Position numbers and translations under genes: made by a program. 64,000 nucleotides of DNA from Thermodesulfovibrionales bacterium. Lineage in GTDB: Bacteria; Nitrospirota; Thermodesulfovibrionia; Thermodesulfovibrionales; UBA6898. Location of the stretch: positions 29,696 through 93,695 of the forward strand of contig JBIOIY010000006.1 of NCBI GenBank assembly GCA_044450345.1, given 5' to 3'. Position 1 is the first letter of the stretch; every line of letters begins with the position of its first letter. Below are positions 12,002 to 35,937 of this stretch, piece after piece. Under the pieces are notes generated by a model. The model was given only the letters and a program-made list of their open reading frames with translations. It did not search any database and was not told the origin of the DNA.

Positions 12002-12208
12002 ATGTCATTCAGGTGTAAGAATATGGAAGGCTGCCCCATGTATGATCTCCTCACCACAGCGGTGCGGATAATCCAGCTTCAGCCTTTTTTGATCGGCTAT
12101 TGTGAAAACCCCGCGAATTGCCGCGAGTGCGCCAGATATAAGCTTATTGAAATCGGCAAGGAACCGCCAATCGACCTCCTGCCCGATGGCAAGAAGCTGC
12201 CTTCTTAG
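12002..12208 (+). CDS. Small Cys-rich hypothetical protein (68 aa)
   Basis: SD GAGG; C-x5-CP...YC...C-x2-CARY...P.DLLP pattern. Confidence 0.6.
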   Translation: MSFRCKNMEGCPMYDLLTTAVRIIQLQPFLIGYCENPANCRECARYKLIEIGKEPPIDLLPDGKKLPS

Positions 12209-12504
12209 CCTTCATCCCCTTTCAGTCTTTCGATATATTCTTCCCATTCGAGCGGCAGCATATGCTTTTTTTTGTTGTTGCATTCCTTGCACGAAGGGAC
12301 GACGTTGCCCTTCGTCGACTTTCCCCCTCTGATTAGAGGGACGATATGGTCCATCGTGAGTTCTTTCGGAAGAAATTTATTATTACAGAAATAACAGACA
12401 CCCTCCGACCGTTTCCTTTTCCACCATTGTGACTGCCTCAACTCCCGCGCCCTGGCGCGCTCCCTTCTGACTTCTTCCTCGGCCACCTCCGGGACAAATG
12501 CCAT
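12205..12504 (-). CDS. Stand-alone HNH endonuclease family protein
   Basis: CYFC...TMDHIVP...N...CKECNN zinc-HNH motif. Confidence 0.9.
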   Translation of the reverse strand: MAFVPEVAEEEVRRERARARELRQSQWWKRKRSEGVCYFCNNKFLPKELTMDHIVPLIRGGKSTKGNVVPSCKECNNKKKHMLPLEWEEYIERLKGDEG

Positions 12505-12506
12505 CG

Positions 12507-14585
12507 CTATGGGAGGCCCGACCAGAGCATGCTTTGGTCCCTTCCGTTCTGCTTTGCATAGTAGAGGGCCTGGTCCGCCTTTTCTATAAGCTCTTCCTTG
12601 CTCTTCGCGTCGGAAGGAGAGGTAGCGATGCCTATGCTTACTGAGACCTCAATCTGCCTGCCGTTTGCAGAAAAGGGATTTTCTTTGACTTTACGTCTTA
12701 ACCTCTCTGCGATGTTCTTTGCCCCTTCGCCGGAGGTCCCCGGGAGGACGACGGCAAACTCCTCTCCCCCGTATCTTGCGGGAATGTCTATGTCGCGGAT
12801 CGTCTCCCTTATCACTGATGCAACCCCCTTAAGTACGAGGTCACCTATGGGATGGCCGTATGTGTCATTCACCTTCTTGAAATAGTCGATGTCCGTAAGG
12901 ATGAGGGAGATAGGTTCAGCAAACCTCTTCATGCGTTTGAACTCGTCCGCTAGCTCCTCTTGAAACTTCCTATGGTTGAAGAGGCCCGTGAGACCATCTG
13001 TCGCAGCCATCTTTTCGATCCTGGCATGCAGCTGTGCATTTGCTATCGAAGTCGAAGCCTGATTGGAGAAAATATCCAGCAGATTTATGCGGGAGCTGTC
13101 GAGAAAATCCTTTTCCTCGGAAAGCATGACCAGCAGCCCCAGGAGATTGCGCTCATATATCATGGGAATAGCCATGACCGAAAGAACATTTTCCGTCTCG
13201 AACGGCATAATTTTAATTGAGGGGTATTCCCGCAGGTCGGGGACATAATGTCTGTGCCTGTTCTCAATTGCAAAATTGACGATGGTCCCCCTGAAATCGA
13301 CAATGGCGGCCGCGCCGGATACGACGCCGGTATGGTACTTCAACTCAAAATTCCTGCCCTGACTGATAAAAAAAAATGATCGGGCCCCGGATATCTTCTC
13401 AGCCACCTTGCAGAGCTTCTCGGAAATCTCATCGATCTTCAGAGAGGTTACGAGGGATGAACTCTCCCGCTCCAGCATCTTCAACCCGGATAATTCACGG
13501 TTGAGCGCCATGGATATCCTCTGTCTTTCGAGGATCCTGATAAGGTGGTCTGCAAACATCTTGACCGTTTTTTCCGTGCCCTCTATCCCGCTGAAGGCCT
13601 GGTAGCGGGAGCTGTCGACGGTCAACACCCCGGTTACGGCTGACCCTTCCATGATCGGCGCTGCGATAACAGAGGTGATCTTCATCTTTCCTGTTTTGTG
13701 ATAGCCAAGGTCTGCGCCTTTGTCGTCAAGCTCACCGGACGAGAAAGTCTTCCTATCGCTCAGGCATTTGGCGATGACTCCACCATTTTTTGTAACAACA
13801 ACATCCTTTCCCTCTGTAGTGCACCTCAGTTCGATGCCTTCGCTGCAAGGAACGAAAAAATTGACGGAGTCGGCAAGGACGGCCTTTTTAATGGTGAGGA
13901 GGAGCTCTTTTATTTCCTCGTCGGTACTGCGGGCAAAAGCCACATAATGGACCATCATCTCGTCGTTGCTCAAAGATTCCATCTCGGCCTCACGCGTGAT
14001 GCCTTTTGCCTTGTCCCTGATCGCATTCAGCGATCTTTCAAGTTCTTCTTTCCCCTTTTTCGACTTATCGAACACTACTCCTGCCGTCAGCGCCGTAAGC
14101 ATAAGGAACAAAGAAAATGCCGCCTCTTCAATGAGTATCTCGGAAGAAAATGATGCCTTATGCAGCAGATAAGAAGCAAATGCCGAGAGAGAACCCTTTA
14201 ATCCAACGACAGGGATAAGCAAAGACAGACGAAGAATGGCCTTAACCGGAAAAAAATAAACTGCGGCAATAATAAGAGGGAAAAAGACCAGTTTAAGCCA
14301 AGGCAGCTTCAGTGCCGAAATAATACCAGCCAGGGCCACTAATACCACAAATAAAAACTCCGCAGACAATTCCCTTTTGTCAGCGCTGAAAACCAGAAAG
14401 GCATAGAGCAAGGCCGTCGCAACAGACAGCGGGAACCAGATGATAGGGCGTGTTACAGGGATATCAGTCAGCAGGAAAAGCCAGGAGACAACGAGCAAAA
14501 GGAGCGCCGTGCTCCTCTTCAGCCAGTAGCTCTGCCTTTCTTTATCTCCTCTTCCCGGAAGAATTTTTTGTAGAGTACTTCCCAT
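12507..14585 (-). CDS. Membrane diguanylate cyclase (TM-GAF-GAF-GGDEF); start uncertain
   Basis: N-terminal hydrophobic helices, two GAF-like regions, DGLTGLFN, RxxD I-site (RDID) and GGEEF. Confidence 0.88.
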   Translation of the reverse strand: MGSTLQKILPGRGDKERQSYWLKRSTALLLLVVSWLFLLTDIPVTRPIIWFPLSVATALLYAFLVFSADKRELSAEFLFVVLVALAGIISALKLPWLKLVFFPLIIAAVYFFPVKAILRLSLLIPVVGLKGSLSAFASYLLHKASFSSEILIEEAAFSLFLMLTALTAGVVFDKSKKGKEELERSLNAIRDKAKGITREAEMESLSNDEMMVHYVAFARSTDEEIKELLLTIKKAVLADSVNFFVPCSEGIELRCTTEGKDVVVTKNGGVIAKCLSDRKTFSSGELDDKGADLGYHKTGKMKITSVIAAPIMEGSAVTGVLTVDSSRYQAFSGIEGTEKTVKMFADHLIRILERQRISMALNRELSGLKMLERESSSLVTSLKIDEISEKLCKVAEKISGARSFFFISQGRNFELKYHTGVVSGAAAIVDFRGTIVNFAIENRHRHYVPDLREYPSIKIMPFETENVLSVMAIPMIYERNLLGLLVMLSEEKDFLDSSRINLLDIFSNQASTSIANAQLHARIEKMAATDGLTGLFNHRKFQEELADEFKRMKRFAEPISLILTDIDYFKKVNDTYGHPIGDLVLKGVASVIRETIRDIDIPARYGGEEFAVVLPGTSGEGAKNIAERLRRKVKENPFSANGRQIEVSVSIGIATSPSDAKSKEELIEKADQALYYAKQNGRDQSMLWSGLP

Positions 14586-21728: not shown

Positions 21729-22892
21729 TTATTCGTGGTATCCGCCTTCTTCCCTGACAGAGATAGCAACCTTATAGAGTACGGTCAGGACCAGGAACCC
21801 GATCGCCCAGACACCGAGCGTAATCATCGCCTCAGGCGCGGTCGGCCAATACTCCGTGATGCCCTCGAACATGTTGGGCACAAACCCGCCGATGACCAAC
21901 CCAAACCCTTTATCTATCCAGAGAGAGATGAAAAGTGATGCGCAGGCAACTGCAAGCAGGTTTTCGTTCTTGCGGAAACCGGGGAAAACCAGAAGAAACA
22001 GCGCGACCACCGCAAGGATACTGGAAGTCCACATGATCGGCACGAGTTTATCATGCCCTTCAATCCCGGCATAGAGGTACCTGAAGGGACTAATGTGACC
22101 GGGGATATTGCTATAGAAAGCAGTAAAGAACTCGAGCCCAAGGAGAAACACGTTGGCGAACATGGCATACGTTACGATCTTTCCGAGCGCCTGGATCGGC
22201 TCCTGTCCCGGATCGAATTTCGTCAGCTTTCTGACGAGAAGGGCCAGGATGATCAGCAGCGCCGGGCCTCCGGCAAAAGCGGATGCGAGAAACCGGGCTG
22301 CCATCACGGCCGTCAGCCAGAAATGCCTGCCGGGGATACCCGCATACAGGAAGGCCGTAACCGTATGGATACTGACCGCCCACGGTACCGAAAGATAGAT
22401 AAGGGGCTTTACCCATTGGGGCGGATGCACTCCTTTGCTGTCTGCGGCCAGCGTAGTCCAACCGATCACGATATTCAGCACGAGGTAGCCCATTAACACA
22501 ACGCTATCCCAGAACATAACCGAGTTTGGTGTGGGATGAAGAATAACGTTTGTTATCCTCATCGGCTGTCCCATGTCGACAAAGATAAAGAGGATGCACA
22601 TGATCACGGCCGAGACTGCGAGGAATTCACCCAATATAACTATCTTCCCGAATTTCTTGAAATCATGGAGATAGTACGGAATGACGAGCATCACCGCAGA
22701 GGCGGCAACCCCGACCAGAAAGGTGAACTGGCCGATATAGAGTCCCCAAGACACGTCGCGGCTCAGTCCGGTGATACCCAGACCATAGCTGAACTGTCTG
22801 AGGTACTGGGTCATGGCTATGCCGATGACTACCAGCAACACGCCTATCCACAGCCAATATCGTTTACTTCCAATAAGAGCTTTCTCGAGCAT
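21729..22892 (-). CDS. dsrP: DsrP (NrfD/PsrC family membrane subunit)
   Basis: Polytopic membrane protein with VSWGLYI and SIHTVTAFL; last gene of MKJOP. Confidence 0.92.
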   Translation of the reverse strand: MLEKALIGSKRYWLWIGVLLVVIGIAMTQYLRQFSYGLGITGLSRDVSWGLYIGQFTFLVGVAASAVMLVIPYYLHDFKKFGKIVILGEFLAVSAVIMCILFIFVDMGQPMRITNVILHPTPNSVMFWDSVVLMGYLVLNIVIGWTTLAADSKGVHPPQWVKPLIYLSVPWAVSIHTVTAFLYAGIPGRHFWLTAVMAARFLASAFAGGPALLIILALLVRKLTKFDPGQEPIQALGKIVTYAMFANVFLLGLEFFTAFYSNIPGHISPFRYLYAGIEGHDKLVPIMWTSSILAVVALFLLVFPGFRKNENLLAVACASLFISLWIDKGFGLVIGGFVPNMFEGITEYWPTAPEAMITLGVWAIGFLVLTVLYKVAISVREEGGYHE

Positions 22893-23686
22893 TATTCCTT
22901 ACCTCCTATCACGTAGTAAATACTGGGCTGTGTTCCTAGTTCGGGTTTACGCCTGATCGTATACTTCGACTCTATGATCTTTCTCACCTCGGAATTCGGG
23001 TCTCCGAGATCTCCGAATACGATAGCCCCGTTCGATGCCTCAACACATGCCGGCATCTGCCCGATTGCCAGCCGTTCGTAACACATGGTACATTTCTCGA
23101 CAACACCGATCGTGCGAGTAGGGAACTGCTTGTTTTCCTTCTTGATGAAGGGCCGGGGATCACGGTAGTTGAAGCTCCTCGCCCCAAACGGACAGGCCGC
23201 CATACAGAACCTGCAGCCGATGCACCGGTGCATATCCATCATCACTATTCCGTCTTTGCGCTTAAAAGTGGCCTTGGTGGGACACACCCTGACACACGGC
23301 GGCTGTTCGCAATGGTTGCATAAAAGAAGGAAATTCTTCTCCTTCATCTCCTTGTTCATATACTCGTCTTCCGTGGATGTGGGGAACGTACGCTCGTAGT
23401 TGTCCTTCCAGATCCACTTCACCTCGTCTTTGGGATTGCCGATGTCGGGCACGTTGTGGATGCTGTGGCAGGCGTCGACGCACTTCTGATAATCTTCAGG
23501 CGTCCTCAACTTGCTCACGTCGATGACAAAACCCCATCGTTTGGCCGTAAGGGACCTGGGATCAGGATGCGTCTGTGTCGCCTCCAATATCTTTCCTCCC
23601 ATGCCGTTAAGGACAGCGGGGCCGCCGATCCCGAGCACGGTCGAAACTCCGGCTAGTTTTAAAAATTGTCTTCTATTTATGCTCAT
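22892..23686 (-). CDS. dsrO: DsrO iron-sulfur subunit, Tat-exported
   Basis: NRRQFLK Tat signal from ATG 23686; CNHCEQPPC and CIGCRFCMAAC motifs. Confidence 0.92.
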   Translation of the reverse strand: MSINRRQFLKLAGVSTVLGIGGPAVLNGMGGKILEATQTHPDPRSLTAKRWGFVIDVSKLRTPEDYQKCVDACHSIHNVPDIGNPKDEVKWIWKDNYERTFPTSTEDEYMNKEMKEKNFLLLCNHCEQPPCVRVCPTKATFKRKDGIVMMDMHRCIGCRFCMAACPFGARSFNYRDPRPFIKKENKQFPTRTIGVVEKCTMCYERLAIGQMPACVEASNGAIVFGDLGDPNSEVRKIIESKYTIRRKPELGTQPSIYYVIGGKE

Positions 23687-24093
23687 GACTCTTTCTCCTT
23701 CGGTGCGATGTGGCAACTGAAGCAGTATGGGTTCACCCCGATATAATTGTGGCATTTATCGCAGAACTCTTTTTTATTCGAATGGCAGTTCAAGCATGTG
23801 TTCTGAAGACTCATGGTGAAACTCTTGCCTCCGGAATTCACATAGATACGATCGCCGTTCCGGACGACCGAGTCACGCCACTGGTTGATCATCTGCATAT
23901 GTTCCGCCCTCATAAACGCCTTGGGTTCAACACATTCCTTCTTGCCATGCTCTTTTTCCCATTGGAGTATCGCCGGCGTGTCGAACTTCAGCTCGGGCTT
24001 TGCATTGGCCTTGCCGAGGTTATAATAAAAGGGGAACGCGAAGATTGCCACGAAGGCAATCACCACCCCGATGACTATTTTTCCTGAGTTCAT
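23683..24093 (-). CDS. dsrJ: DsrJ triheme cytochrome c
   Basis: N-terminal TM helix, CVE..FMR.EHM, three CxxCH. Confidence 0.92.
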   Translation of the reverse strand: MNSGKIVIGVVIAFVAIFAFPFYYNLGKANAKPELKFDTPAILQWEKEHGKKECVEPKAFMRAEHMQMINQWRDSVVRNGDRIYVNSGGKSFTMSLQNTCLNCHSNKKEFCDKCHNYIGVNPYCFSCHIAPKEKES

Positions 24094-24094
24094 C

Positions 24095-25714
24095 TCAGTT
24101 GCCCTCCTTTCCCGGCAGGGGATCACCGCGTAAGTTGGTCTCCCTCTCCTTTTCGCCTTTCATAATCAGGGCATTGGCAACCATTTCGTGTATGCCCGTG
24201 ACCCGCACACCCGGGACCCAGTAATCCATGGAGGCCGAAAGCGTGGCCCTGTCTATCGCACAGATATTCGCAAGCATATTGACGCCATGCTTGTCCTTGA
24301 CGTGCTTCACTGCATTGGCCCTCGGGAATCCGCCTCTCATCCTGAGTTCCATATTTTCACTTGCGTTGAGGCCCGTACCACTGCCGCAGCAGAACGTCTG
24401 CTCCCTGATGGTATTCTCAGGCATCTCATGGAAGTGGTTGCAGACGTTCCTGATAATATAGCGCGGCTCTTCCAGAAGCCCCATTCCCCTTGCGGTATTG
24501 CAGGAATCATGGTATGTCACCACGAGGTCATCGTTCCTCGAAGGGTCGAGTTTCAGTTTGCCGTGTTTGATAAGGTCTGCCGTGAACTCAGCGACATGGA
24601 TCATCTTGGTTGACCTGGCATTTTCAAACTTAGTCCCGGTTATAGGGGAAACCGGCACCTCCATGAAATCGGTCGGGCCATTCCAGGTATCCATATATTG
24701 ATGAAGGACACGCCACATATGTCCGCACTCCCCGCCGATGATATATTTCACGCCAAGCCGTTTGGCCTCGGCGTATATTTTTGAGTTGAGCCTTTTAGCC
24801 ATATCATTAGACGTGAAGAAGCCGAAATTGCCGCCTTCGGATGCATAGGTAGACCACGTGTAGTCAAGACCAAGTTCGTGAAAGAGTGCGAGGTAGCCCA
24901 TGCAGGTGAAGGTGCCGGGATCGGCAAAGAGGTCGCCCGAGGGGGTAACAAAGAGTATCTCTGCGCCCTTCCGGTTGAAAGAGGGGTTCACCCTGACCCC
25001 AGTGACGGTCTCTATGTCGTCGATCATGCCCTCGATGCTGTTCATGATGGCGTGGGGCTCGAGACCCAGGTGATTGCCCTTCATATAACAGTTGGCCACA
25101 GGCCCTGATATCCAGTCAGTATTCAATCCAAGCAGGTTCAGAAGCTCCCTGCACATTATCGTTATCTCAGCGGTATCAATACCGTAGGGACAGTAGAGCG
25201 AACAGCGGCGGCACTCGGTGCACTGGTATGCATAGTACCAAAGCTCTTTCAGCACATCGACGGTCAGTTCCCTGGCGCCCGCGGTCTTTCCGAGGATCTT
25301 TCCTGATGTTGTGAAATATTTCCTGTAGACCGACCTTAGGAGTTCAGCCCTCCCCACGGGCATGTTTTTGGGGTCCCCCGAGCCGATGAAGAAGTGGCAC
25401 TTGTCGGCGCATGCACCGCACCTGACACAGATGTCCATGAAGACTTTGAAGGAACGGTATTTACTAAGGAGGTCCTGCATCCCTTTTAAGAATATCTCCT
25501 GCCAGTTCTCCGGGAGTTTCCAGTCCTCATCGGACGGGTTCCAGTCCCTCGCGTTTGGGAACTCTACGGTAGCGAGGTTCTTTCCCTTTGCGCCCCAGCA
25601 GAATGTCCCCGGTTTTATTACCGTCGGGGTGTCCATCCACTCGGTCTTGGGCGGGGTAAAATCTATAGAAGTTACCAGTTCAGCGGGTTTTGGAGTAGTT
25701 ACTTTTGTCGCCAT
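24095..25714 (-). CDS. dsrK: DsrK (HdrD-like Fe-S subunit)
   Basis: CVRCGACADKC, CTECRRCSLYC, GECGH, HDSC and CCG motifs. Confidence 0.94.
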   Translation of the reverse strand: MATKVTTPKPAELVTSIDFTPPKTEWMDTPTVIKPGTFCWGAKGKNLATVEFPNARDWNPSDEDWKLPENWQEIFLKGMQDLLSKYRSFKVFMDICVRCGACADKCHFFIGSGDPKNMPVGRAELLRSVYRKYFTTSGKILGKTAGARELTVDVLKELWYYAYQCTECRRCSLYCPYGIDTAEITIMCRELLNLLGLNTDWISGPVANCYMKGNHLGLEPHAIMNSIEGMIDDIETVTGVRVNPSFNRKGAEILFVTPSGDLFADPGTFTCMGYLALFHELGLDYTWSTYASEGGNFGFFTSNDMAKRLNSKIYAEAKRLGVKYIIGGECGHMWRVLHQYMDTWNGPTDFMEVPVSPITGTKFENARSTKMIHVAEFTADLIKHGKLKLDPSRNDDLVVTYHDSCNTARGMGLLEEPRYIIRNVCNHFHEMPENTIREQTFCCGSGTGLNASENMELRMRGGFPRANAVKHVKDKHGVNMLANICAIDRATLSASMDYWVPGVRVTGIHEMVANALIMKGEKERETNLRGDPLPGKEGN

Positions 25715-25716
25715 TT

Positions 25717-26709
25717 TCACTCCTTCTCGACCGGCAGACCGGCCTTTTTCATTTTTTCTCTGAAGTCGTTTTCATACTCTTCATAAGTATGGACATGCAC
25801 CGGATGGTTCCACGGGTTGATGTGTCTTACCTCCCTGCTGTTGTTGGCCATGTTCCTCGTCGGGCTGAGGAAAACACCGCCCATGTGCATGAGCTTGCTC
25901 ATAGGGAAGTAGGCAAGCAGGGTGCTGACGAGGAAGAGGTGGATATAAAAGACAGGGCTGATGCCTTCCGGGATCGTCGGACTAAAAGAGAGAAGCCCCA
26001 TCACAAGTTCTTTTACGCCCACTACGTGCACCTTGGTAAAATACCGCATAAAAATGCCCGAGATGGCGATACCGAGTATGAGAAACAGGGGGAAATAATC
26101 AGCAGGAAGGGATATATACTTTATCTGGGGCATTAAGACTCTTCTTAAAAACAGAAACGTCACCGCCCCCACAAGGACAACGTCTGTCATATAGAGCAGC
26201 GGGGCGCCGATTTGCAAGAAACTGTCCAGCCCCTCTATCGTCTTTATGACGAATGGTACATCCAGCATGAAGAACCTAAAATGTCTTACAAAGATAATAA
26301 GAAACGACCAGTGGAACGCGAGCCCCGCGAGCCAGAGGAACTTCTCTGACCCGTAGGCGAGCTTAGTGCCGGGATAGAGCTGCGTCTTCGTGTTCCTGAA
26401 AAGAGAACGGAAAAAGAACACTTCGAGCACCATTCTCACAAACACAGCCCCGGGCGTCGACGGGTTGTCGATCTTATTCGCCTTGATCCAGGGCGCGAAG
26501 GACTTCATCTGCCCGGCAGTAGTCGGGATGCGGTAAGGCACCGGCGAGTTTCCCCACTTAAACACTCGGACCACAAATCCTATGATGAAGATCGCAACGG
26601 CAATATATGGGATAATAATCCCGAACACGGACTGGAGGTTCGCCTGCACCCCCACAAATGCGATCACGACAAGCGCTATGACGGTAAATAAGGGCAGCAA
26701 GATTTTCAT
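25717..26709 (-). CDS. dsrM: DsrM (NarI-like cytochrome b)
   Basis: PYRIPTT, FHW...RH and SKLMHMGG.FLSPTRN motifs. Confidence 0.93.
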   Translation of the reverse strand: MKILLPLFTVIALVVIAFVGVQANLQSVFGIIIPYIAVAIFIIGFVVRVFKWGNSPVPYRIPTTAGQMKSFAPWIKANKIDNPSTPGAVFVRMVLEVFFFRSLFRNTKTQLYPGTKLAYGSEKFLWLAGLAFHWSFLIIFVRHFRFFMLDVPFVIKTIEGLDSFLQIGAPLLYMTDVVLVGAVTFLFLRRVLMPQIKYISLPADYFPLFLILGIAISGIFMRYFTKVHVVGVKELVMGLLSFSPTIPEGISPVFYIHLFLVSTLLAYFPMSKLMHMGGVFLSPTRNMANNSREVRHINPWNHPVHVHTYEEYENDFREKMKKAGLPVEKE

Positions 26710-26747
26710 TGAGTTACCTCTTTTTCTTTTGCGTTATCATCATTGCT

Positions 26748-27275
26748 TTAGGTGAGACCGTCTTTTTTATCCTCGCCCTCACCAATATCGTTAACTCTCT
26801 GCAATAACCTGAAGGTCATATTCCTCAATTCGTTTGCCTTGATATCGTATAGCTTCTCACGGCACTTCATAAACAGGTCGAACGAGGAAAGCGCCAGGGC
26901 ATCGATTCCGGCCTCAAGCGAAAGAACCTCCTCATAAGGGATGTTTCCCTGGAAACTCTGTCTAAGCTCCTCCCGTATCACCTTCTTCAGGGAGAAGATA
27001 AAGGAAATCGCCTTGGACGGCGAGAAATCCTGGACAGCCCTGACCCTGATAATGTCGTCCAGAAATTCGAAAAGATCGCCGGAAACCGGACTGATCAGCT
27101 CGTCAAAGATTTTTTCTATCCCCTGATAAATGGTATGCCCTACAGGATTGGCAAAGGGATTCTTTTGGTTTCTCAGGAAAGTTGAAGTATCAGCTGGATA
27201 CGTTTCCAGTACAAGATCGAACCACTTCTTAAGGATATCGGCTCTTTTCTCAGAGAGGAACTTCTCAAGTGTCAT
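26748..27275 (-). CDS. dsrT: DsrT (RsbRD N-terminal domain)
   Basis: FANPVG and IIRVRAVQDFSPS motifs; directly upstream of dsrM. Confidence 0.9.
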   Translation of the reverse strand: MTLEKFLSEKRADILKKWFDLVLETYPADTSTFLRNQKNPFANPVGHTIYQGIEKIFDELISPVSGDLFEFLDDIIRVRAVQDFSPSKAISFIFSLKKVIREELRQSFQGNIPYEEVLSLEAGIDALALSSFDLFMKCREKLYDIKANELRNMTFRLLQRVNDIGEGEDKKDGLT

Positions 27276-27501: not shown

Positions 27502-27837
27502 CTATACGCAGCCAGTAGGTTTCGGAAGGCCAGCATACCTACAAGCCTGTTTTGCGGGTCCGGCCGGATAGAGCTCGTACAGGTATTTTGTATTGCCTTT
27601 TTCAGGCCCCATAGCCTTTCCGATCTCTTTGACAAGGATCTTGATCATCGGAGCTATCTGATACTGCTTGTAATATTCTCTCAGAAAGTTGATGACTTCC
27701 CAATGAGCATCGGTAAGGGCAAGTCCATCTCCCTTAGCCAGTTCTTCGGCCAAATCCTTGGTCCAGTCGTCGAGGTTCAAAAGATAACCATCATCATCAA
27801 CCTCGATCTGTTTTCCTTGAAAATCCATAGTCGGCAT
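27502..27837 (-). CDS. dsrC: Sulfur carrier DsrC
   Basis: C-terminal ACRYAGLPKPTGCV retains both conserved cysteines. Confidence 0.96.
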   Translation of the reverse strand: MPTMDFQGKQIEVDDDGYLLNLDDWTKDLAEELAKGDGLALTDAHWEVINFLREYYKQYQIAPMIKILVKEIGKAMGPEKGNTKYLYELYPAGPAKQACRYAGLPKPTGCV

Positions 27838-27992: not shown

Positions 27993-28059
27993 AAAATAAT
28001 ACAGATACCCATGCCCGGTCAAATAAAAAAAACTTATCGATCAATCACCTTTATTTATT
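27993..28059 (-). promoter_or_regulatory. dsrC promoter with conserved upstream motif
   Basis: TTGACC-18 nt-TATTTT; 28017-28059 matches 33487-33529 at 34 of 43 positions. Confidence 0.55.
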
Positions 28060-28130
28060 TCTTTAAAATCCATTGGTTTTTCAATTACTCACCGCTCCGA
28101 AACTGATCCGTTTGCCAACAAGACAGATGG

Positions 28131-28487
28131 CTACGCCACAGGTTTATTGATGAGAAGAAATAAAAAAACAGGAGAATTTTTCCTGCGTTTCGGGTCTCCA
28201 CCTAACTTGTTACGCCTGCGGTCAAAACCAAGCTCCATAACCGTGTAGTCTTTATCAGGGATAAGGCTCCAGGCCTTGTCCATGTCATCATTACATGCAA
28301 GCCCGAGCGCATCTATATATGCGTCACCAAGACTATGCCCGGTACTGTCATACACATAGACCGCCCCGCATTGGCACTTTCCGCCTTCAAAGGAACTCCC
28401 GAACCTCGCCTTTATTTCGCCGGGAGGATCCAAAGGGCGGCTGCAAAACGGACAATCCAACGATGAACCATTAGCAATTCCTGCCAT
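28131..28487 (-). CDS. Hypothetical Zn-ribbon-like protein in the dsr cluster
   Basis: CPFC...CQCGAVY motif; abuts the upstream gene's stop codon. Confidence 0.75.
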   Translation of the reverse strand: MAGIANGSSLDCPFCSRPLDPPGEIKARFGSSFEGGKCQCGAVYVYDSTGHSLGDAYIDALGLACNDDMDKAWSLIPDKDYTVMELGFDRRRNKLGGDPKRRKNSPVFLFLLINKPVA

Positions 28488-29138
28488 CTATTTACCTTTC
28501 AGAGTAAGTAGTATAACAGTTTCTTCTGCAATTTTTCCGACGGCGATGCTTTCGAAATCTCCATGAGAATACATGCTCACGATCGCACGGTCGTGCATAA
28601 GCGCCTCTGCAGCCGCAAGAAATTCCTTCAACATTAAGTTACGCACGAGTTCCAGCGCATAGGCCCTCGTAACCGCGTCGCTGTGTCCGAGATATAACCC
28701 GGCAACTGCAGATGACCCTTCCACAAGGTCGGCCCTTACCTCGCTGATCCTCACCAGCGCCCTCAACACGCCCCGCCTAAGTATTTCCTCATCATGGAAA
28801 GAAGCAATGATCGGCGCGATGTCTGCGAATTCTTCAGGCGCGTTCCTCACTATCTCACCGAGCATTTCGGGAGCGCTCCACGGATTGTTCCCTGATTCTT
28901 CACGCATCATCCAGAGGATTCTCTGCACAAGGTTCCTGATGAGACCGGGCTCGGTCCTCGCCCTTTCTCCAGCTATGATGCCGATAGCCTCCATCGCCCT
29001 CCAGGAAATAACGGACTCCTTGTCGTACGAAAGGGAGATGAGGGTCCTGAAAATGCTATTGTCTTTTCCTGCTTGCGCCACAAGCCCTGCGATATCACCT
29101 TCTTTGAGCAGTCTTGATATCTTTTCTCTCTTCGACAC
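28488..29138 (-). CDS. HEAT/ARM-repeat protein (DVU0298-like by recollection); start uncertain
   Basis: Helical repeats WRAMEAIG, W.M.EESG...W.APEMLGEI; probable GTG at 29138 overlapping the dsrN end. Confidence 0.72.
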   Translation of the reverse strand: MSKREKISRLLKEGDIAGLVAQAGKDNSIFRTLISLSYDKESVISWRAMEAIGIIAGERARTEPGLIRNLVQRILWMMREESGNNPWSAPEMLGEIVRNAPEEFADIAPIIASFHDEEILRRGVLRALVRISEVRADLVEGSSAVAGLYLGHSDAVTRAYALELVRNLMLKEFLAAAEALMHDRAIVSMYSHGDFESIAVGKIAEETVILLTLKGK

Positions 29139-30537
29139 CTTTATCTTTTTCTTTTTTATATAGAGCAGCTCTATTGACGAGTCCCTCGGCCCATTCGGGC
29201 GCTCCATACGCATGCAAATGAGTGTAGGTCGCCAAAACATTCTTATAACATACTCCGTCCGACTTCTGCTTTATCCCCTGACCGCGTTTCATCGTGAACG
29301 AAAAAGTCACCCCATCCTTGTTCCTGCAGTCTGCAACTCGTGAATAATGGAACTCATGGCCTTTCAGCAACGTCCCCTTAGCGTAGAAAGGGTTTTTCCC
29401 AGATACTTCGACTACGGTATACCCGTGGGCCTGAGGTTTCTTCTCCAGGCAGAAAGTTATCGGGAAGACCCCGGTCATCGGATATTTTTTGCCGTCTATA
29501 AGCAAAACCTCGCCTAGGTACATCAATCCCCCGCATTCCGCGTAGACGGGCAGCCCCCTTTCGACCGCAACAAGAACCGATCTTCTGAATGAGTTGTTTT
29601 TTGCCAGGGGTATGGCGTTTGTCTCGGGGAAACCACCCCCTATATAGAGGGCATCGATATCGGGAAGTTCTTTCCCGGTCAGTGCGCTGACCTCCAAAAG
29701 TTCAGCACCACGGTTGAGGAGTTCTTCCATGTTTTCGGGGTAATAGAATTGGAAAGCCGAATCCCTTAAGACACCGATCACGGGTCTCCCGGATGTCTCA
29801 CTTCTCTGCCGCGGAGGTTCCCCCCGTCCGGCACTGAGATATCTCGCCCCCTTGGCTATATCCTCGATCGCGGCAATATCCACATATTTCGCGGCAATAT
29901 CGCCGGCCAGAGAAATCGCCTTTTCCACATCGGGATGCTCCTGAAAAGAGGTGAGTCCCATATGTCTCTCCGAAATTAATTCATCTTCAAGTCGAGGGAT
30001 AGCTCCGACGACAGGCACCCCGCAGTAGCGTTCAATCGCTTCTCTCACAATTCTTTCATGTCTTGACCCTGCGATCCTGTTCAAGACTACCCCTTTTACT
30101 TCGATCTCCCTGTCGAACTTCTGTACGCCTAGAACCAGAGCCGCAGCAGTCCTCGTGACCTTGGTGCAGTCGATAATCAGCACAACAGGGGCCTTCAGTA
30201 TTTTTGCAAGTTCCGCAGTACTGAATGTTCCGGCAGAATCCATGCCGTCATACAAACCCCGGTTCCCTTCTATCACCGCGTATTCGGCGTCTTGAAAATG
30301 CTCCCTGAAGGACGACATGATTTTTTCCTTACCTATCAGGAAGGGGTCGAGGTTATAGCATAAACGCCCCGCTGCCAAAGACAGCCACCCCGCATCAATA
30401 TAGTCCGGGCCTTTCTTGTACGGAATTACGGCACGACCTCTCTTTCTCCAGGCCGCTATCAGTCCGAGAGAGAGCGTGGTTTTACCTGCGCCGCCCTTAA
30501 GACCGGCGATCACAAGTCTTGGAAATGGAGATTTCAT
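29095..30537 (-). CDS. dsrN: DsrN (siroheme amidase, CbiA/CobB family)
   Basis: GKTT, KKGPDYID, AECGG and GHEFHYS motifs; lies inside the dsr cluster. Confidence 0.9.
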   Translation of the reverse strand: MKSPFPRLVIAGLKGGAGKTTLSLGLIAAWRKRGRAVIPYKKGPDYIDAGWLSLAAGRLCYNLDPFLIGKEKIMSSFREHFQDAEYAVIEGNRGLYDGMDSAGTFSTAELAKILKAPVVLIIDCTKVTRTAAALVLGVQKFDREIEVKGVVLNRIAGSRHERIVREAIERYCGVPVVGAIPRLEDELISERHMGLTSFQEHPDVEKAISLAGDIAAKYVDIAAIEDIAKGARYLSAGRGEPPRQRSETSGRPVIGVLRDSAFQFYYPENMEELLNRGAELLEVSALTGKELPDIDALYIGGGFPETNAIPLAKNNSFRRSVLVAVERGLPVYAECGGLMYLGEVLLIDGKKYPMTGVFPITFCLEKKPQAHGYTVVEVSGKNPFYAKGTLLKGHEFHYSRVADCRNKDGVTFSFTMKRGQGIKQKSDGVCYKNVLATYTHLHAYGAPEWAEGLVNRAALYKKEKDKGVEERKDIKTAQRR

Positions 30538-30660
30538 CCTATAAATTTTTGCATCGCACCACGCCGAAATATATGCACATCTTTTTTTTATATTGCCTTA
30601 ATTAGGAGGAGATTATCAAGGCTGCAACCGGCGCGGGAACTTACTTCGGCTATTTCAGCA

Positions 30661-30705
30661 AAAAAAGATAAGGCTACAGAGGGGCTGAATAGGAAACCCC
30701 TCTGT
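30661..30705 (-). terminator. Probable terminator after dsrD
   Basis: ACAGAGGGG/CCCCTCTGT stem with a T-run shortly after it on the minus strand. Confidence 0.55.
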
Positions 30706-30728
30706 TATTCCTGCAAGATGAAGCTGTT

Positions 30729-30977
30729 TTACTTTATAAGACCTTTTTCTCTGAGGTACTCATCGCTGGGTATCTCGACGGAACTCGCACCGCCTCCATA
30801 TGAATACATGAGCCTTCCTACGTCTATCATACCTCTCATTGCCTTCTTTACTTCATCTCCGGGCAGGCTCTGCTCTTCAGATACGCCTTTGATGATGTCT
30901 TTCTCTTTCAGTTTTTTCTTACCCTTTGCCGCTAGTACGAAGGCAAAAATCTTGTCTTGAAGCTCAGCTGTTTCCAT
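30729..30977 (-). CDS. dsrD: DsrD-like small protein (divergent)
   Basis: 82 aa, basic, EVKK.M..MI..G.L.Y pattern; directly after dsrB. Confidence 0.72.
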   Translation of the reverse strand: METAELQDKIFAFVLAAKGKKKLKEKDIIKGVSEEQSLPGDEVKKAMRGMIDVGRLMYSYGGGASSVEIPSDEYLREKGLIK

Positions 30978-31011
30978 ACTTACCCCCGTTTTTTGAAATG
31001 TCGTTTATACG

Positions 31012-31040
31012 AAGGCAGTCCCGAATATCGAGACTGCCTT
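31012..31040 (-). other. Stable hairpin between dsrB and dsrD, no U-tract
   Basis: AAGGCAGTCTCGA/TCGGGACTGCCTT. Confidence 0.65.
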
Positions 31041-31059
31041 ACCGATCATTATACAACAA

Positions 31060-32130
31060 CTACCACTTGAAGGTTGAAGCAGTCCTTAACGTGTCCCTCA
31101 TGAACGTGAAGTCGTCGATGGACTGGAACGTGAATTCTATGCCGGTAAGAGAGAAGAACCTCTCCCAGCCTACCCTCTCTATCCACTCGCCTATCCTTTC
31201 ATGCTTTCTTGCATTCGCGGCATAGACCTCAACGATATGCTTTACCGCGGCGACGACCTTCGGCCATCTCGGCGGCTCATTAGAGATATAAGGAATAACA
31301 AGCTTCGAGAACTTAGGATTACTTCTGAGGCTGTTTACCTTTCCGCCTACGACTATGGCAATGCCGTCGCGCTCGGGGTCCTTGATACTGATGGGCGGGC
31401 ATACGGTGAAACAGTTACCGCAGTACATGCACTTGTCAGGGTTTATCTTCACGCTCTTGTTCGCAGGATCAGGGCTGATCGCGCGGGTCGGGCATGAACC
31501 GATGACCGTCGGCAGTTCGCACATATTCTTAAAGTTCGCATGGTTGACCACAGGCACCTTCGTATGAACCGCGACGATTGCGATATCGGAACAATGCACT
31601 GCGCCGCACATATTCACGCAGCATGCGACCGCGAGCCTGACCTTGTTGGGAAGCCTCTTCGACTCGAAATACTCAAAGAGTTCATCCATCATCGCCTTCA
31701 CGATGCCGGATGCGTCGGTCGCTGCACTGTGGCAGTGTACCCAGCCCTGTGTATGGACGACGTTCGTTATGCCATAGCCGATACCGCCCATCTTGAAGCC
31801 GCGGGCTGAGAGGTCTTTCTTTATCGGCTCGAGGTTCTTCTCGTCGGATACGAGAAACTCCACGTTGTTTCTCGTTGTGAAGCGGAGGTGGCCGCCGCAG
31901 AATTTCTCCGCAACGTCGCAGATCTCGCGGATCGTGGTCGTTGATAAAATCCTCGGGGAAGCAACCCTGACCGTCCAGAGTTTATCGCCGCTTTCGGCCA
32001 CGTGGACCATGGTGCCGGGCGTAAGCACCTCATGATATTTCCACTTCCCGTAATTCTTATCTATTACAGGCGGCATGAACTGCCTATAATGGGGCGGCCC
32101 TATGTCTGTTTTTCTCTGTGGTAATGCCAT
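31060..32130 (-). CDS. dsrB: Dissimilatory sulfite reductase beta subunit
   Basis: [20 protein letters not shown] and CMYCGNC motifs. Confidence 0.98.
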
Positions 32131-32164
32131 TTTTATGTATCCTCCTTATTTAAATTTTTAAAAG

Positions 32165-33394
32165 TTAAAACTTATATTTACCGGTCTTCTTCTCTTCGGC
32201 TTCCTTCGCCTTATATGATGCGATATCAGCCTCCGTGTAGAACATGAACGGATCTTTCCTCGGCTCCTTGATCTGCTGCGGCGCCGGCGGCACGCCGATA
32301 GCCTCCAGGAACGACCTCATGCCCTTCACCTCGATGACCTCGCCGATCCTCTCTCTGGGCTTCCCGTTATCATCCCACCAGTCCCATATCTTGCGGAGCA
32401 GGTCTTTCAGCTCCGTATACGGCGGCTCGATTTTGATGAACGGAATGATGACCCATGAGAGCAGCGAACCGACGACGATAGGGGCCTTGCTTCCCATACA
32501 GATTGTGGCTCCCCTTTCACCGCTCGGCTTCAACGCCTTTGTCATCCTCGTTATGCAGTGCATGCACCTGCTGCATTCTTTGTTATCTATCTTAAGTTCC
32601 TTGCCGTCATAACTCATGCACTGTGTCGGACACATACCGACGATTTCGGACATTATATTCATGCCTTTTTTGGCATAATTCTGGACCTCTTTCTGGTCGA
32701 TCAATATGTCGCCCTTCCAGGTCCCGATTATGGAGAAGTCCGAACGTGCGATCGAGGCAACACAGTCACAAGCGCAGCCCGCTGCCTTTATCTTGAACTT
32801 GTAAGAGAACATCGGCCTGTGCAGCTCGTCCTGGAATTCCTGCGTTAAATTGTAGACGAGGTCGAGGGTATCATAATTTGTCCATTCGCAGCGGCCTGGT
32901 CCTACACAGCAGCTTGGGGTCCTGAGGTCTGAACCTGAACCACCGAGGTCCCATCCGCGGGACGAATATTCAGCAAATATCGCTTCGAGGGCATCGGTCT
33001 TCGTTCCGAGAAGAACGATATCGCCCGTGGATCCGTGCATGTTCGTCAGCCCGCTTCCATATTTATCCCAGATATCGCAAATCTCCCTTAATGCCTTGCT
33101 GGTATAGAAAAACCCGCTGGGCTGGTTCAACCTGACAGTGTGGAAATGAGCGACACCCGGGAATTCTGCCCCGAGTTCCGAATACCTTCCGATAATTCCA
33201 CCACCGTAGCCGAGGACCCCGACTATTCCACCGTGCTTCCAGTAGCCCACCTTGGTAGAGTAACACTTCTCAAGATGTCCTACTGCATCGTTTGACATCT
33301 CGTTGTTTTTGCCGGCCTTCTTCATCTCGGTGACGAAGCTCGGCCATGGACCTTTTTCCAACTCATCGATCAACGGCGTATTATACTTCTTCAT
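32165..33394 (-). CDS. dsrA: Dissimilatory sulfite reductase alpha subunit
   Basis: [23 protein letters not shown]...GCACDC siroheme-[4Fe-4S] motif. Confidence 0.98.
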
Positions 33395-33462
33395 CTAATC
33401 CTCCTTCTTTATGGTGATTTTTTTTTCGTAGCCCAATAAATGCAAAACTGCAAGCGCTAAAA

Positions 33463-33529
33463 AGCTTAAAACACCTTTTATCTGTTGGTCAAATAAAATA
33501 AATTAATCTGTTAATCATAATTATTTATT
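33463..33529 (-). promoter_or_regulatory. dsrA promoter with conserved upstream motif
   Basis: TTGACC-18 nt-TAAGCT plus an AT-rich block shared with the dsrC promoter. Confidence 0.6.
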
Positions 33530-33654
33530 AACCTGATACTGAAAATATTAAAAATGGCCTTCGTGATGCGCTCTTGTCCCATTTTCTTATTTACTTTCCC
33601 CCCTATCCAAGTGCTATACTTATCGAGTTTTCAGTCTTAGCCGTACTATAGGCC

Positions 33655-35937
33655 ATGGAGAGAAATATGCGAAGACCGTTATTTATATTATTGTTTATTA
33701 TTCTTACCTCTGGTATCGCCTTCGCAGAGGCACTGCCTGTTGTCAATAAGATCGATATCCAAGGTCTAAAGCGCATAGAGGAAGGTGCAATCAAGGCCAA
33801 GGTCACTCAGAAAATAGGTGATCCCGTCTCTCAGGACAAAATAAACGAGGACATCAAGTCTATTTTCAAGATGGGGTACTTCGACGATGTGAGAGTCGAG
33901 ATCGAACCGTTTGAAGGCGGCGTCAGACTCATTTATATCGTAAAGGAGAAGCCCACGATCATCAAGGTCGATTTCCAGGGCAATAAGGAAATCGATGACA
34001 CCAAGCTGAAGGAAAAGATAACAATCACCGCAGGGGCGATCGCCGATACGGTCCTGATACAGGATAATGCCCTTAAATTAAAGAGTTTTTATGAGGAGGA
34101 AGGCTATTGGCTCGCAAATATAGTCCCGGTCACGAAGAAGATATCCGAAGACGAGATAGGCCTCACTTACCAGATCGACGAAGGCCCGAAGATAAAGATA
34201 AGGAAAATCTTTGTTGAAGGTAACAAGAACATTTCTTCGTCGAAGATCAAGAAGGCGATGGAAACAAAGGAATGGTGGCTTTTTTCATTTGTGACCTCGT
34301 CGGGATATTACAAAAAGGCCCAGATGGACGGTGATGTCGAAAAGATAAAGGCCCTTTATTTTGATAACGGGTATATCAAAGCGGTCGTTGCCGAACCCGA
34401 GATCACGGTCGACAAAGAAAAGAAAGGCATGACCATAACGGTCAGGGCATCCGAGGGCGACCAGTATAAGGTCTCGTCCCTAGATTTTAGCGGGAACAAG
34501 GTCTACGACGATGCCGCCATCAGGAAACTGATAACCATTTCACCAAACAGCATATTCAGAAAAAGCCAGCTCGAAAAAAACATACAGGCGATCTCCTCAC
34601 TCTATTCCGATAACGGGTACGCGCTGGTTTCTGTAATGCCCGATCTCGTCCCCGATGAAAGAGACAAGACAGTGCGCGTTTCCCTCGCCATCAGCGAAGG
34701 AGAGAAATACCGGGTAGGCCGAATCGAGGTATCAGGCAATACAAAGACCAGGGACAATGTCATCAGGCGGGAAATCAGGTTCGACGAAGGCGAGATCTTC
34801 AGCAGCTCAAAGCTGAAGAGGACTTATGAAAGGATCAACAACCTCCAGTTTTTCGATACTGTCGACATCGTGCCGAAGCCGAAATATGAGGAAAAGGTGG
34901 TAGACCTCGATGTCAGGGTCAAGGAAAAGCCCACGGGTTTTCTGAGTATCGGAGGAGGCTACAGTTCGGTGGATAAACTCATTGCGACCGCGGACCTGAC
35001 CCAGGGGAACCTCTTTGGAAAGGGCCAATATGTGAAAATCAAAGGTGAACTCGGGGGACTGAGTTCGCTTTACGAAATCTCGTTTCGGGACCCATGGTTT
35101 CTCAACAGACCTATTGCCCTGAATACAGGCATATATAGAACGACGCGCAACTACACGGAATATTCCAAAGAAGCATATGGGTTTTTCGTCGGTCTTGGAA
35201 AAAATTTCTCCGAATACTGGAACGCCGATGTTTCATATAATTTTGAGAGGGCGACTATCTCGAACATCACAGCTGGGTCATCGCCGATAATAACCGATCA
35301 GAGGGGGACAAAGTCTACGAGCAGTATCACTCCGACCATCGCAAGAGATTCGCGGGACAATCTACTCGACCCGTCGCGGGGGTCGAGGAATTCCCTTTCA
35401 GTGACATATGCCGGAATCGGGGGCGACAACTACTTTTTCAAGACATCTGCGGATTCTGCCTGGTACTTTCCCATTGGTCCGACGAGTATCATGCTGAGGG
35501 GCCGAATCGGTTATACAAAGGGGCTCTTTGATAAGAAAGTTCCTCTTTATGAAAATTTCTTTGTCGGGGGCATATACACTGTGAGAGGGCTGGGGTTCGC
35601 TCAAGCCGGGCCGATAGACAAGACCACCCTCGATGGAATCGGGGGTACGTCGGAACTGATCTTCAATACCGAGTATATCTTCCCCATCCTTCCTGATATG
35701 AAGTTGAAGGGCGTCGTCTTTTTCGATGCGGGCAACTCATATGGATGCTCAGGATCTTCTTGCGCGGACGTCGGCGCAGTAGCCGATTCCTTTGGCACCT
35801 TAAGATATACGACCGGCACAGGGATCAGATGGATCTCGCCGATCGGCCCCATCAGGATTGAATGGGGATATAACATACAGAAAAGACCCGGTGAAAGCTC
35901 CGGCAAATTTGAATTTGCCTTCGGAAGCTTTTTCTAG
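33655..35937 (+). CDS. bamA: Outer membrane assembly factor BamA (ATG 33667 is an alternative start)
   Basis: Signal peptide, POTRA repeats, VRG loop, C-terminal Phe. Confidence 0.95.
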   Translation: MERNMRRPLFILLFIILTSGIAFAEALPVVNKIDIQGLKRIEEGAIKAKVTQKIGDPVSQDKINEDIKSIFKMGYFDDVRVEIEPFEGGVRLIYIVKEKPTIIKVDFQGNKEIDDTKLKEKITITAGAIADTVLIQDNALKLKSFYEEEGYWLANIVPVTKKISEDEIGLTYQIDEGPKIKIRKIFVEGNKNISSSKIKKAMETKEWWLFSFVTSSGYYKKAQMDGDVEKIKALYFDNGYIKAVVAEPEITVDKEKKGMTITVRASEGDQYKVSSLDFSGNKVYDDAAIRKLITISPNSIFRKSQLEKNIQAISSLYSDNGYALVSVMPDLVPDERDKTVRVSLAISEGEKYRVGRIEVSGNTKTRDNVIRREIRFDEGEIFSSSKLKRTYERINNLQFFDTVDIVPKPKYEEKVVDLDVRVKEKPTGFLSIGGGYSSVDKLIATADLTQGNLFGKGQYVKIKGELGGLSSLYEISFRDPWFLNRPIALNTGIYRTTRNYTEYSKEAYGFFVGLGKNFSEYWNADVSYNFERATISNITAGSSPIITDQRGTKSTSSITPTIARDSRDNLLDPSRGSRNSLSVTYAGIGGDNYFFKTSADSAWYFPIGPTSIMLRGRIGYTKGLFDKKVPLYENFFVGGIYTVRGLGFAQAGPIDKTTLDGIGGTSELIFNTEYIFPILPDMKLKGVVFFDAGNSYGCSGSSCADVGAVADSFGTLRYTTGTGIRWISPIGPIRIEWGYNIQKRPGESSGKFEFAFGSFF

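Follow-up and report, generated by a model that had tools for sequence, protein, structure and literature searches.

A putative LysR-type operator at the dsrA, dsrC, and sat promoters of a Thermodesulfovibrionales bacterium and its candidate sulfite-responsive regulator

LysR-type transcriptional regulators (LTTRs) bind T-N11-A boxes, with a regulatory site within -80 to -50 (around -65) and activation sites at promoter elements, according to the available text of a review (PMC11495319). Two described members respond to sulfite. For YeiE, the available parts of two papers report cysJI (assimilatory) and yeiH (sulfite stress) as targets rather than the respiratory dsr or sat-apr genes (PMC8931317, PMC12880088), and CysL of Bacillus subtilis is described as an activator of the sulfite reductase operon (PMC8931317, PMC11495319). 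For Desulfovibrio, HcpR sites are predicted at sat and aprBA, and dsrAB is placed outside the predicted regulon in the text available (PMC545781). Here we analyze a 43-nt element shared by the dsrA and dsrC promoters in a 64,000-nt stretch of DNA (the window; contig JBIOIY010000006.1 of GCA_044450345.1, positions 29,696 to 93,695) from a Thermodesulfovibrionales bacterium of the phylum Nitrospirota, together with LysR1, a LysR-type protein of the same genome. The motif with its layout and conservation, the further sites, the pocket residues of LysR1, and its co-occurrence with dsrA suggest, with a probability of roughly 0.7, that LysR1 is a sulfite-responsive LTTR that activates the sulfate-reduction genes and represses itself; DNA binding, ligand, activation, and start sites are predictions.

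The 43-mers at 33487-33529 (dsrA) and 28017-28059 (dsrC) align without gaps at 34 of 43 positions, and both adjoin a minus-strand TTGACC followed 18 nt downstream by TAnnnT, which reproduces the alignment and the common anchor reported in a first-pass annotation of this DNA. On both strands of the 3.19-Mb genome the two 43-mers are mutual best matches; the best unrelated match reaches 28/43 for the dsrA query and 27/43 for the dsrC query, and a 29/43 match of the dsrC query is the reverse strand of its own site. When both intergenic regions were shuffled in 20-nt blocks (n = 300), the best 43-mer identity was 22-30 and never 34. The 37 nt 5' of the -35 are identical at 28/37 positions between dsrA and dsrC, a value equalled in 0 of 200,000 shuffles. 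The element is also a 38-nt imperfect dyad, a feature absent from the first-pass annotation.

Orthologous upstream regions aligned on the -35 yielded 28 distinct dsrA and 29 distinct dsrC sites for column counts, mostly from the host family (other families give 1 and 5, respectively). Four tetramers, ATAA, T-x-A-T, A-T-x-A, and TTAT, starting at offsets 0, 11, 21, and 32, hardly vary in either set, and the consensus is ATAA-N7-TSAT-N6-ATWA-N7-TTAT, then TTGACC, 18 nt, and TAnnnT. The distal N7 and the central N6 differ between the dsrA and dsrC sets, while a T-tract at about -46 to -39 is conserved within the last (proximal) spacer. The tetramers start 11, 10, and 11 bp apart, which puts each of the four in the next major groove along the same face of the helix. 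Assuming a start 7 nt after the -10, the distal and proximal boxes occupy about -72 to -58 and -51 to -37, with centers near -65 and -44. Both promoters carry two T-N11-A boxes with imperfect dyad symmetry, and the predicted positions match the LTTR layout of a site near -65, within -80 to -50, plus an activation site at the -35. Judged from its letters and layout, the shared motif is very probably an LTTR-type operator.

Other regulator classes fit the conserved letters poorly. Predicted Rex-type sites lie at sat and aprBA of Desulfovibrio. The genome, which is 91% complete, has no match to the Rex domain PF06971, and a Rex-like string at C7:8135 scores 12.3 bits and lies near unrelated open reading frames (ORFs). 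The conserved letters form neither a Rex palindrome nor an HcpR/CRP-FNR-type palindrome (TTGTGA-N6-TCACAA), although CRP-family genes themselves were not searched for; the first-pass annotation had likewise seen no resemblance to Rex or Crp palindromes. Reading the inner TGAT-N6-ATWA as an FNR/CRP site was also rejected, since the outer tetramers are equally conserved and TTAT stands in place of TGAT at the sat sites described below and at the sites of f19, a family of another class.

A weight matrix built without the host-genome sites gives 41.2 and 39.7 bits to the dsrA and dsrC sites of the host genome, and the next match scores 12.4. With the plain tetramer pattern, derived from host-family sites, 15/15 is reached only at dsrA and dsrC, and there are 15 strand-hits at 14/15. 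The first-pass annotation had proposed a scan that would include sat, apr, and qmo, and a related site indeed precedes sat (C3:54705; ATAA-N7-TTAT-N6-ATGA-N7-GAAT, then TTGACT-N18-TATAGT) in the same register as at the dsr promoters. This sat gene is followed by aprB-like, aprA, and qmo-like ORFs (aprB and qmo named from sequence reading). The site is kept at 13/14 in 15/15 family loci, including loci with adk inserted before sat, and at ≥12/14 in 7/15 loci of other families (one of 31 loci was dropped from this survey at the BLAST step). Two f19 genomes (G135 and G146) have a 13/14 site before adk-sat, and G071 has a 12/14 site before sat. Equal matches did not turn out to be common at AT-rich promoters, a concern raised with the first-pass annotation: of the genome's 28 AT-rich TTGAC..TAnnnT sites, dsrA (15), dsrC (15), and sat (14 of 15) score highest and the next best has 11, with a 15-letter pattern that was widened by one letter once the sat site was known (the first pattern gives sat 13/15 in that orientation). 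Twelve regions around the other 14/15 matches were read, and apart from sat none precedes a recognizable sulfur gene. Six of the 14/15 matches have no in-register -35 (C2:169232, C2:78654, C15:17563, C28:24536, C1:225820, and C1:9374), and three of the six lie near one-carbon/folate-like ORFs (methyltransferase, formate-THF ligase, and folE/folD by sequence reading).

Conservation was scored as ≥13/14 letters directly before TTGAY, and the counts refer to the fetched regions rather than to every match. The dsrA motif is kept in 30/31 host-family genomes (the single miss is a contig end), in 21/26 genomes of other families in the order (proximal box complete in 24), in 2/2 elsewhere in the host class, and in 12/16 genomes of f19 (proximal box 16/16); among f19 genomes without LysR1 it is found in 1/3. 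The dsrC motif is present in 26/28 host-family genomes and in 15/22 genomes of other families (proximal box 21). The motif is therefore conserved before orthologous dsrA and dsrC, where the first-pass annotation had allowed that it might be missing. When GTDB genomes were scanned with a pattern tuned to Nitrospirota sites and containing the -35, at least 120 matches emerged; among the matches listed, the 108 that can be placed all lie before dsrA (74) or dsrC (34), and 12 have ≤300 nt of flank. Of the 80 titled records among those listed, 79 bear Nitrospirota-type names and one a Nitrospinota name, with a DsrA 85% identical to that of the window.

The same data bear on whether a dedicated regulator is needed at all. 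A strong-promoter architecture (upstream (UP) element, A-tract bend) could have been passed by copying from one gene to the other and retained to give high constitutive expression. The near-invariant T-tract lies where the RNA polymerase alpha subunit makes contact, at about -46 to -39; in the column counts, TGTWT precedes and TAGC follows the -10 of both the dsrA and the dsrC promoters, as common descent would give; and several families retain the proximal box with a decayed distal one, as a UP element would predict, a point that counts against an LTTR operator. However, UP elements usually span -38 to -59, and conservation here is periodic and extends to -72. At the sat site the tetramers persist around a proximal spacer that differs, the 25 other AT-rich TTGAC promoters of the genome reach at most 11/15, and the same boxes lie over the -10/+1 of the lysR1 gene, where a UP element cannot act. 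This explanation is the least probable of those we considered. The caveat in the first-pass annotation that the motif may be only a UP element is not favored in that form, while the T-tract of the proximal box may act as a UP element as a second function. The accompanying idea of a shared regulator acting just upstream of the -35 gains support, to which the two-box LysR layout, a candidate regulator, and the extension to sat-aprBA can be added.

The host genome encodes two LysR substrate-binding domains, LysR1 and LysR2. Identity of LysR1 to its 29 family orthologues is 83-98%, the helix-turn-helix being all but unchanged among them, and orthologues at ≥50% identity occur throughout the order. 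It passes NF040786 (288 vs 250 bits), with the YeiE model next closest, and stays under the cut-off of the curated YeiE model NF040889 (209.2 vs 480 bits). Its neighbors in the PDB are ACIAD0746 and CcmR as well as the regulatory domains of YeiE; 8SBF (ACIAD0746 of Acinetobacter baylyi, presumably a FinR) is both the top sequence match and the top full-length match by template modeling (TM) score (0.80). The LysR1 model (mean predicted local distance difference test score, pLDDT, 91.8) superimposes on YeiE regulatory domains with TM-scores of 0.89-0.91. The sulfite pocket of Cronobacter YeiE, as given in the available text, consists of S96, S97, N126, S127, E145, R191, S195, and T197 (PMC8931317). 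These residues align to LysR1 S98, S99, N128, T129, E147, R194, S198, and T200, of which 7/8 are identical and one is a serine-to-threonine change, and the YeiE E145S structure puts its serine at LysR1 E147. Seven of the pocket positions are invariant in the 30 family sequences (E147 in 30/30), and S99 is kept in 29/30. A representative search outside Nitrospirota, which gave no genomic context, found LysR1 homologues at 35-48% identity. LysR2 was rejected as the regulator, since its orthologues occur in 18/61 relatives, all inside the family, which is too narrow a range. Overall, LysR1 is likely to be the protein that reads the operator. Some genomes of the order also carry a LysR1 paralogue (52-56% identical, with a similar helix-turn-helix; L134-L141 and L143), and no strong site was found near it in the 9 loci.

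The promoter of lysR1 itself contains the boxes. TTAT-N6-ATWA-N7-TTAT covers the TATAAT and the start region of the rnpB-lysR1 unit in 30/30 family loci, and among the 223 AT-rich TATAAT hexamers of the genome the complete box occurs only there. The box is also found at the LysR1 promoter in several other families of the order, and a 13-14/15 match lies 48-60 nt before the lysR start in G039 and G041 (no rnpB found) and in G042 (rnpB upstream of the box). As a sequence feature, this placement is what negative autoregulation would require. LysR1 is not divergent from a target: its gene lies behind rnpB, on a contig other than that of the dsr cluster. The RNase P RNA gene rnpB lies directly upstream of lysR1 behind the same promoter in 30/30 family loci; in the host it corresponds to C21 about 12100-12530 (L061 2400-2850), which we take to be rnpB by eye and from a motif. 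Among five genomes in which lysR is not behind rnpB, RF00010 was matched in one, and the rnpB promoter in this single case has no site (9/14). No RF00010 match was found in G039, G041 (one contig), G044, and G045, and in G041 a zinc-ribbon gene runs straight to lysR1. Protein-only RNase P occurs in some thermophiles and may apply to these four genomes. In genus g7 (G013:C4, G025:C96, G032:C48, and G036:C224), lysR1 is followed on its own strand by sat, whose start lies 1.1-1.3 kb downstream. In family f17 (L375-L378), cysK-like and Rrf2-like ORFs precede lysR1, clearly so in 3/4 loci (names from N-terminal sequence).

Among 141 genomes of the phylum, 74 have both LysR1 and dsrA, 3 have LysR1 only, 3 have dsrA only, and 61 have neither, counts that through kinship reflect few independent lineage splits. 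In G116 (closed) and G101, neither LysR1 (the fetched LysR genes are 35-38% identical) nor sat was found. Both carry a ferredoxin-dsrAB-dsrMK-dsrC cluster (L194 and L195) whose DsrA is 51% identical to that of the window, with no motif in 18 kb, and this minimal dsr cluster probably came from another lineage. In G124, a member of the same genus, no match to dsrA was found and LysR1 has lost E147 and T200. G046 has no dsrA or sat match and a changed recognition helix in LysR1, and its dsrC promoter keeps the proximal but not the distal box. In family f20 (L200, L201, and L203), each genome has two divergent dsrAB copies, one of them with dsrC transcribed divergently.

Several observations weigh against the proposed role of LysR1. 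The column counts reveal no conserved third box over the -35/-10 for a sliding dimer; third sites of LTTRs can be unrecognizable from sequence, as the available review text notes (PMC11495319). In families f16, f17, and f20, the motif precedes dsrA in 0/12 regions, though the LysR1 pocket is largely intact; dsrA is there internal or in another cluster type, and two of the four f17 loci have a 13/15 match farther upstream of the dsrC promoter. All four of the f19 dsrN-dsrC intervals that were read hold an ORF but no separate dsrC site (4/4), so a single promoter probably drives the f19 cluster. Outside the order the autoregulatory box is inconsistent, with 8-13 of 14 letters in 16 loci of f16, f17, f19, and f20. 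In G116 and G101, an unrelated LysR gene is preceded by AT-rich boxes as well (12/14), so the pattern is partly generic for LTTRs. G156 has an intact LysR1 without dsrA. The kinship behind the co-occurrence counts, the host-family origin of the tetramer pattern and its later widening, and two differences from the YeiE group taken up below also belong here.

Three motif-bearing assemblies (G146, G003, and G005) have no LysR1 match, which likewise speaks against LysR1 and would suit a different binder, such as LysR2, another regulator, or the winged-helix protein DsrD, for years regarded as the candidate for control of the dsr genes. G003 and G005 also lack the neighboring zinc-ribbon gene, and G005 lacks the glucan-branching gene, so that an assembly gap is likely there, though not proven. 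A DsrD-like ORF does lie inside the dsr cluster, and with the genome 91% complete a regulator could be missing from the assembly. However, DsrD of A. fulgidus binds DNA non-specifically according to the available text of PMC8794893, LysR2 is confined to 18 relatives within the family whereas the motif occurs across the order and also in a second class, and neither protein accounts for the box at the LysR1 promoter. We regard another binder as improbable, only slightly less so than a promoter architecture without a regulator.

With LysR1 as the reader of the operator, regulation would proceed as follows. One dimer of a LysR1 tetramer would sit on the distal box (about -65) and the other on the proximal box beside the -35. 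Sulfite, the substrate of DsrAB and the product of AprAB, would fill the pocket and close the regulatory domains, whereupon the second dimer would settle beside the -35 and recruit polymerase. The targets thus activated would be dsrAB, dsrC-dsrT-dsrMKJOP, and sat-aprBA, whose sigma-70 promoters are weak, with an 18-nt spacer and a poor -10. At the rnpB-lysR1 unit, the box over the -10/start would confer negative autoregulation, with unliganded LysR1 limiting its own synthesis.

LysR1 might also bind these sites with a different signal or sign, through sensing of thiosulfate, sulfate, or persulfide, constitutive activity, or mainly repression. The inducers listed for CysL in the available review text are sulfate, sulfite, and thiosulfate (PMC11495319), the model NF040786 passed by LysR1 is named for selenium metabolism, sulfite-driven activation of sat-aprBA would be positive feedback on sulfite production, and dsrAB of D. 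vulgaris is described as constitutive in the part of PMC8794893 available. On the other hand, E147 matches the YeiE glutamate that selects sulfite over sulfate and is retained across the family orthologues, and both boxes lie upstream of the -35 rather than over the -10/+1 of weak promoters, which fits activation. We consider these variants unlikely, yet the most plausible of the alternatives to activation by sulfite-bound LysR1.

A wider version of the proposal is about evenly balanced: in Dsr-bearing Nitrospirota, a sulfite sensor of the YeiE/CysL group may be the master activator of the whole dissimilatory sulfate-reduction core (sat-aprBA plus qmo-like, dsrABD-N, and dsrC-T-MKJOP). It would have been handed down in at least two classes and would decay wherever the pathway disappears or gives way to another. 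A toxic intermediate would then turn on the steps that make it as well as those that remove it, and the box may also tune RNase P RNA in the host family. If the proposal is right, an energy pathway of the sulfur cycle is under a type of sensor otherwise associated with cysteine synthesis and the detoxification of sulfite, and the motif would be a marker of regulated sulfate/sulfite respiration in Nitrospirota genomes. What emerges is a specific protein with a predicted ligand, four DNA sites of defined position, and cases of natural loss, and these can be tested in vitro without culturing.

The dsr cluster of the window (Table 1) has the order dsrA-dsrB-(dsrD-like)-dsrN-(DVU0298 family)-(118-aa ORF)-dsrC-(dsrT-like)-dsrMKJOP. 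The 118-aa ORF (28131-28487, minus strand), between the DVU0298-family gene and dsrC, has two CxxC-type pairs and no Pfam or NCBIfam match, and an ORF resembling it by eye precedes dsrC in f19 loci. The gene bamA is divergent from dsrA, and its promoter region (33590-33655) has a block conserved in most family loci about 60 nt from the distal box. A metatranscriptome contig covering 27350-27976 at ~98% identity ends close to where dsrC transcription is predicted to begin; since starts cannot be read from contigs, it was not counted as evidence. These data comprise contigs from four runs of one study, with a share of words of 0.09-0.17.

Table 1. Coordinates of the dsr genes and predicted promoter elements (window positions) and of lysR1 (contig C21)
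Feature	Position	Strand	Remarks
dsrA	32165..33394	-	TIGR02064, 540.9 bits vs cut-off 392.85; heads dsrA-dsrB-dsrD-like-dsrN unit
dsrB	31060..32130	-	TIGR02066 over cut-off
82-aa ORF, DsrD-like	30729..30977	-	Named from position and size; no Pfam/NCBIfam match
dsrN (CobB family amidotransferase)	29095..30537	-	TIGR00379 over cut-off; putative dsrN, named from context
dsrC	27502..27837	-	TIGR03342 over cut-off; first gene behind internal promoter
dsrT-like (RsbRD_N) and dsrMKJOP	21729..27275	-	Probably from dsrC promoter; co-transcription predicted from order and strand
dsrA distal box ATAA-N7-TGAT	33514..33528	-	Putative LTTR recognition site, about -72 to -58
dsrA proximal box ATTA-N7-TTAT	33493..33507	-	Touches -35; putative activation site; T-tract spacer may double as UP element
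dsrA -35 TTGACC	33487..33492	-	TTGAC in 28/28 distinct sites (sites anchored on it)
dsrA -10 TAAGCT	33463..33468	-	18-nt spacer; T, A, and final T in 28/28 distinct sites
dsrC distal box ATAA-N7-TGAT	28044..28058	-	From alignment and column counts
dsrC proximal box ATAA-N7-TTAT	28023..28037	-	Touches -35
dsrC -35 TTGACC	28017..28022	-	
dsrC -10 TATTTT	27993..27998	-	18-nt spacer
lysR1	C21:11166-12071	-	302 aa; behind rnpB; contig other than that of the dsr cluster

Among known systems, YeiE of Cronobacter, Salmonella, and E. coli (7ERP, 7ERQ, and 8SBH) resembles LysR1 in the sulfite pocket, 7/8 including the selectivity glutamate as far as the available texts go (PMC8931317, PMC12880088), in the fold of the regulatory domain, and in autorepression, which is predicted for LysR1. 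The two differ in sequence (about 30-35% identity, with the curated YeiE cut-off missed) and in that LysR1, behind rnpB in the host family, is not divergent from a target, in contrast to YeiE. On account of the missed cut-off and the gene arrangement, LysR1 is not classed as YeiE here. YeiE is reported to bind the yeiE-yeiH region, and the exact site is not in the text available (PMC12880088). The E. coli yeiE-yeiH spacer contains ATAA-N7-TTAT-N6-ATAA-N7-TATT, a 14/16 match to ATAA-N7-TTAT-N6-ATAA-N7-TTAT that arises in 15/20,000 global and 185/20,000 local shuffles. The available part of PMC9068703 gives no YeiE motif. FinR is described as homologous to YeiE, with sulfite deciding which sites it binds (PMC12880088, text in part), and FinR of P. 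aeruginosa binds ATCC-N7-GGAT, with fprA as a target, and not ATAA-N7-TTAT (PMC5302815, likewise), so the YeiE group has no single common half-site.

In BenM, the gap between the first two sites is 6 nt. The BenM-type operator ATAC-N7-GTAT is like the dsr sites in having tetramer-N7-tetramer T-N11-A boxes and a site at about -65 plus a -35 site, in the available review text (PMC11495319), but differs in its bases (ATAA/TTAT at dsr) and in a third box over the -10, which was not found at the dsr promoters. Desulfovibrio HcpR, likewise predicted to control sulfate-reduction genes, differs in using a TTGTGA-N6-TCACAA-type palindrome and repression, as far as the available text shows (PMC545781). 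CysL shares the pocket glutamate with YeiE and LysR1, and in the available texts it controls assimilatory CysJI for cysteine synthesis, unlike the role proposed for LysR1 (PMC8931317, PMC11495319). A full-text literature search, whose coverage leaves out most subscription papers and supplements, found neither a LysR regulator nor this motif at Nitrospirota dsr genes. The published targets of the YeiE/CysL group are assimilatory or protective, whereas those predicted here would be respiratory.

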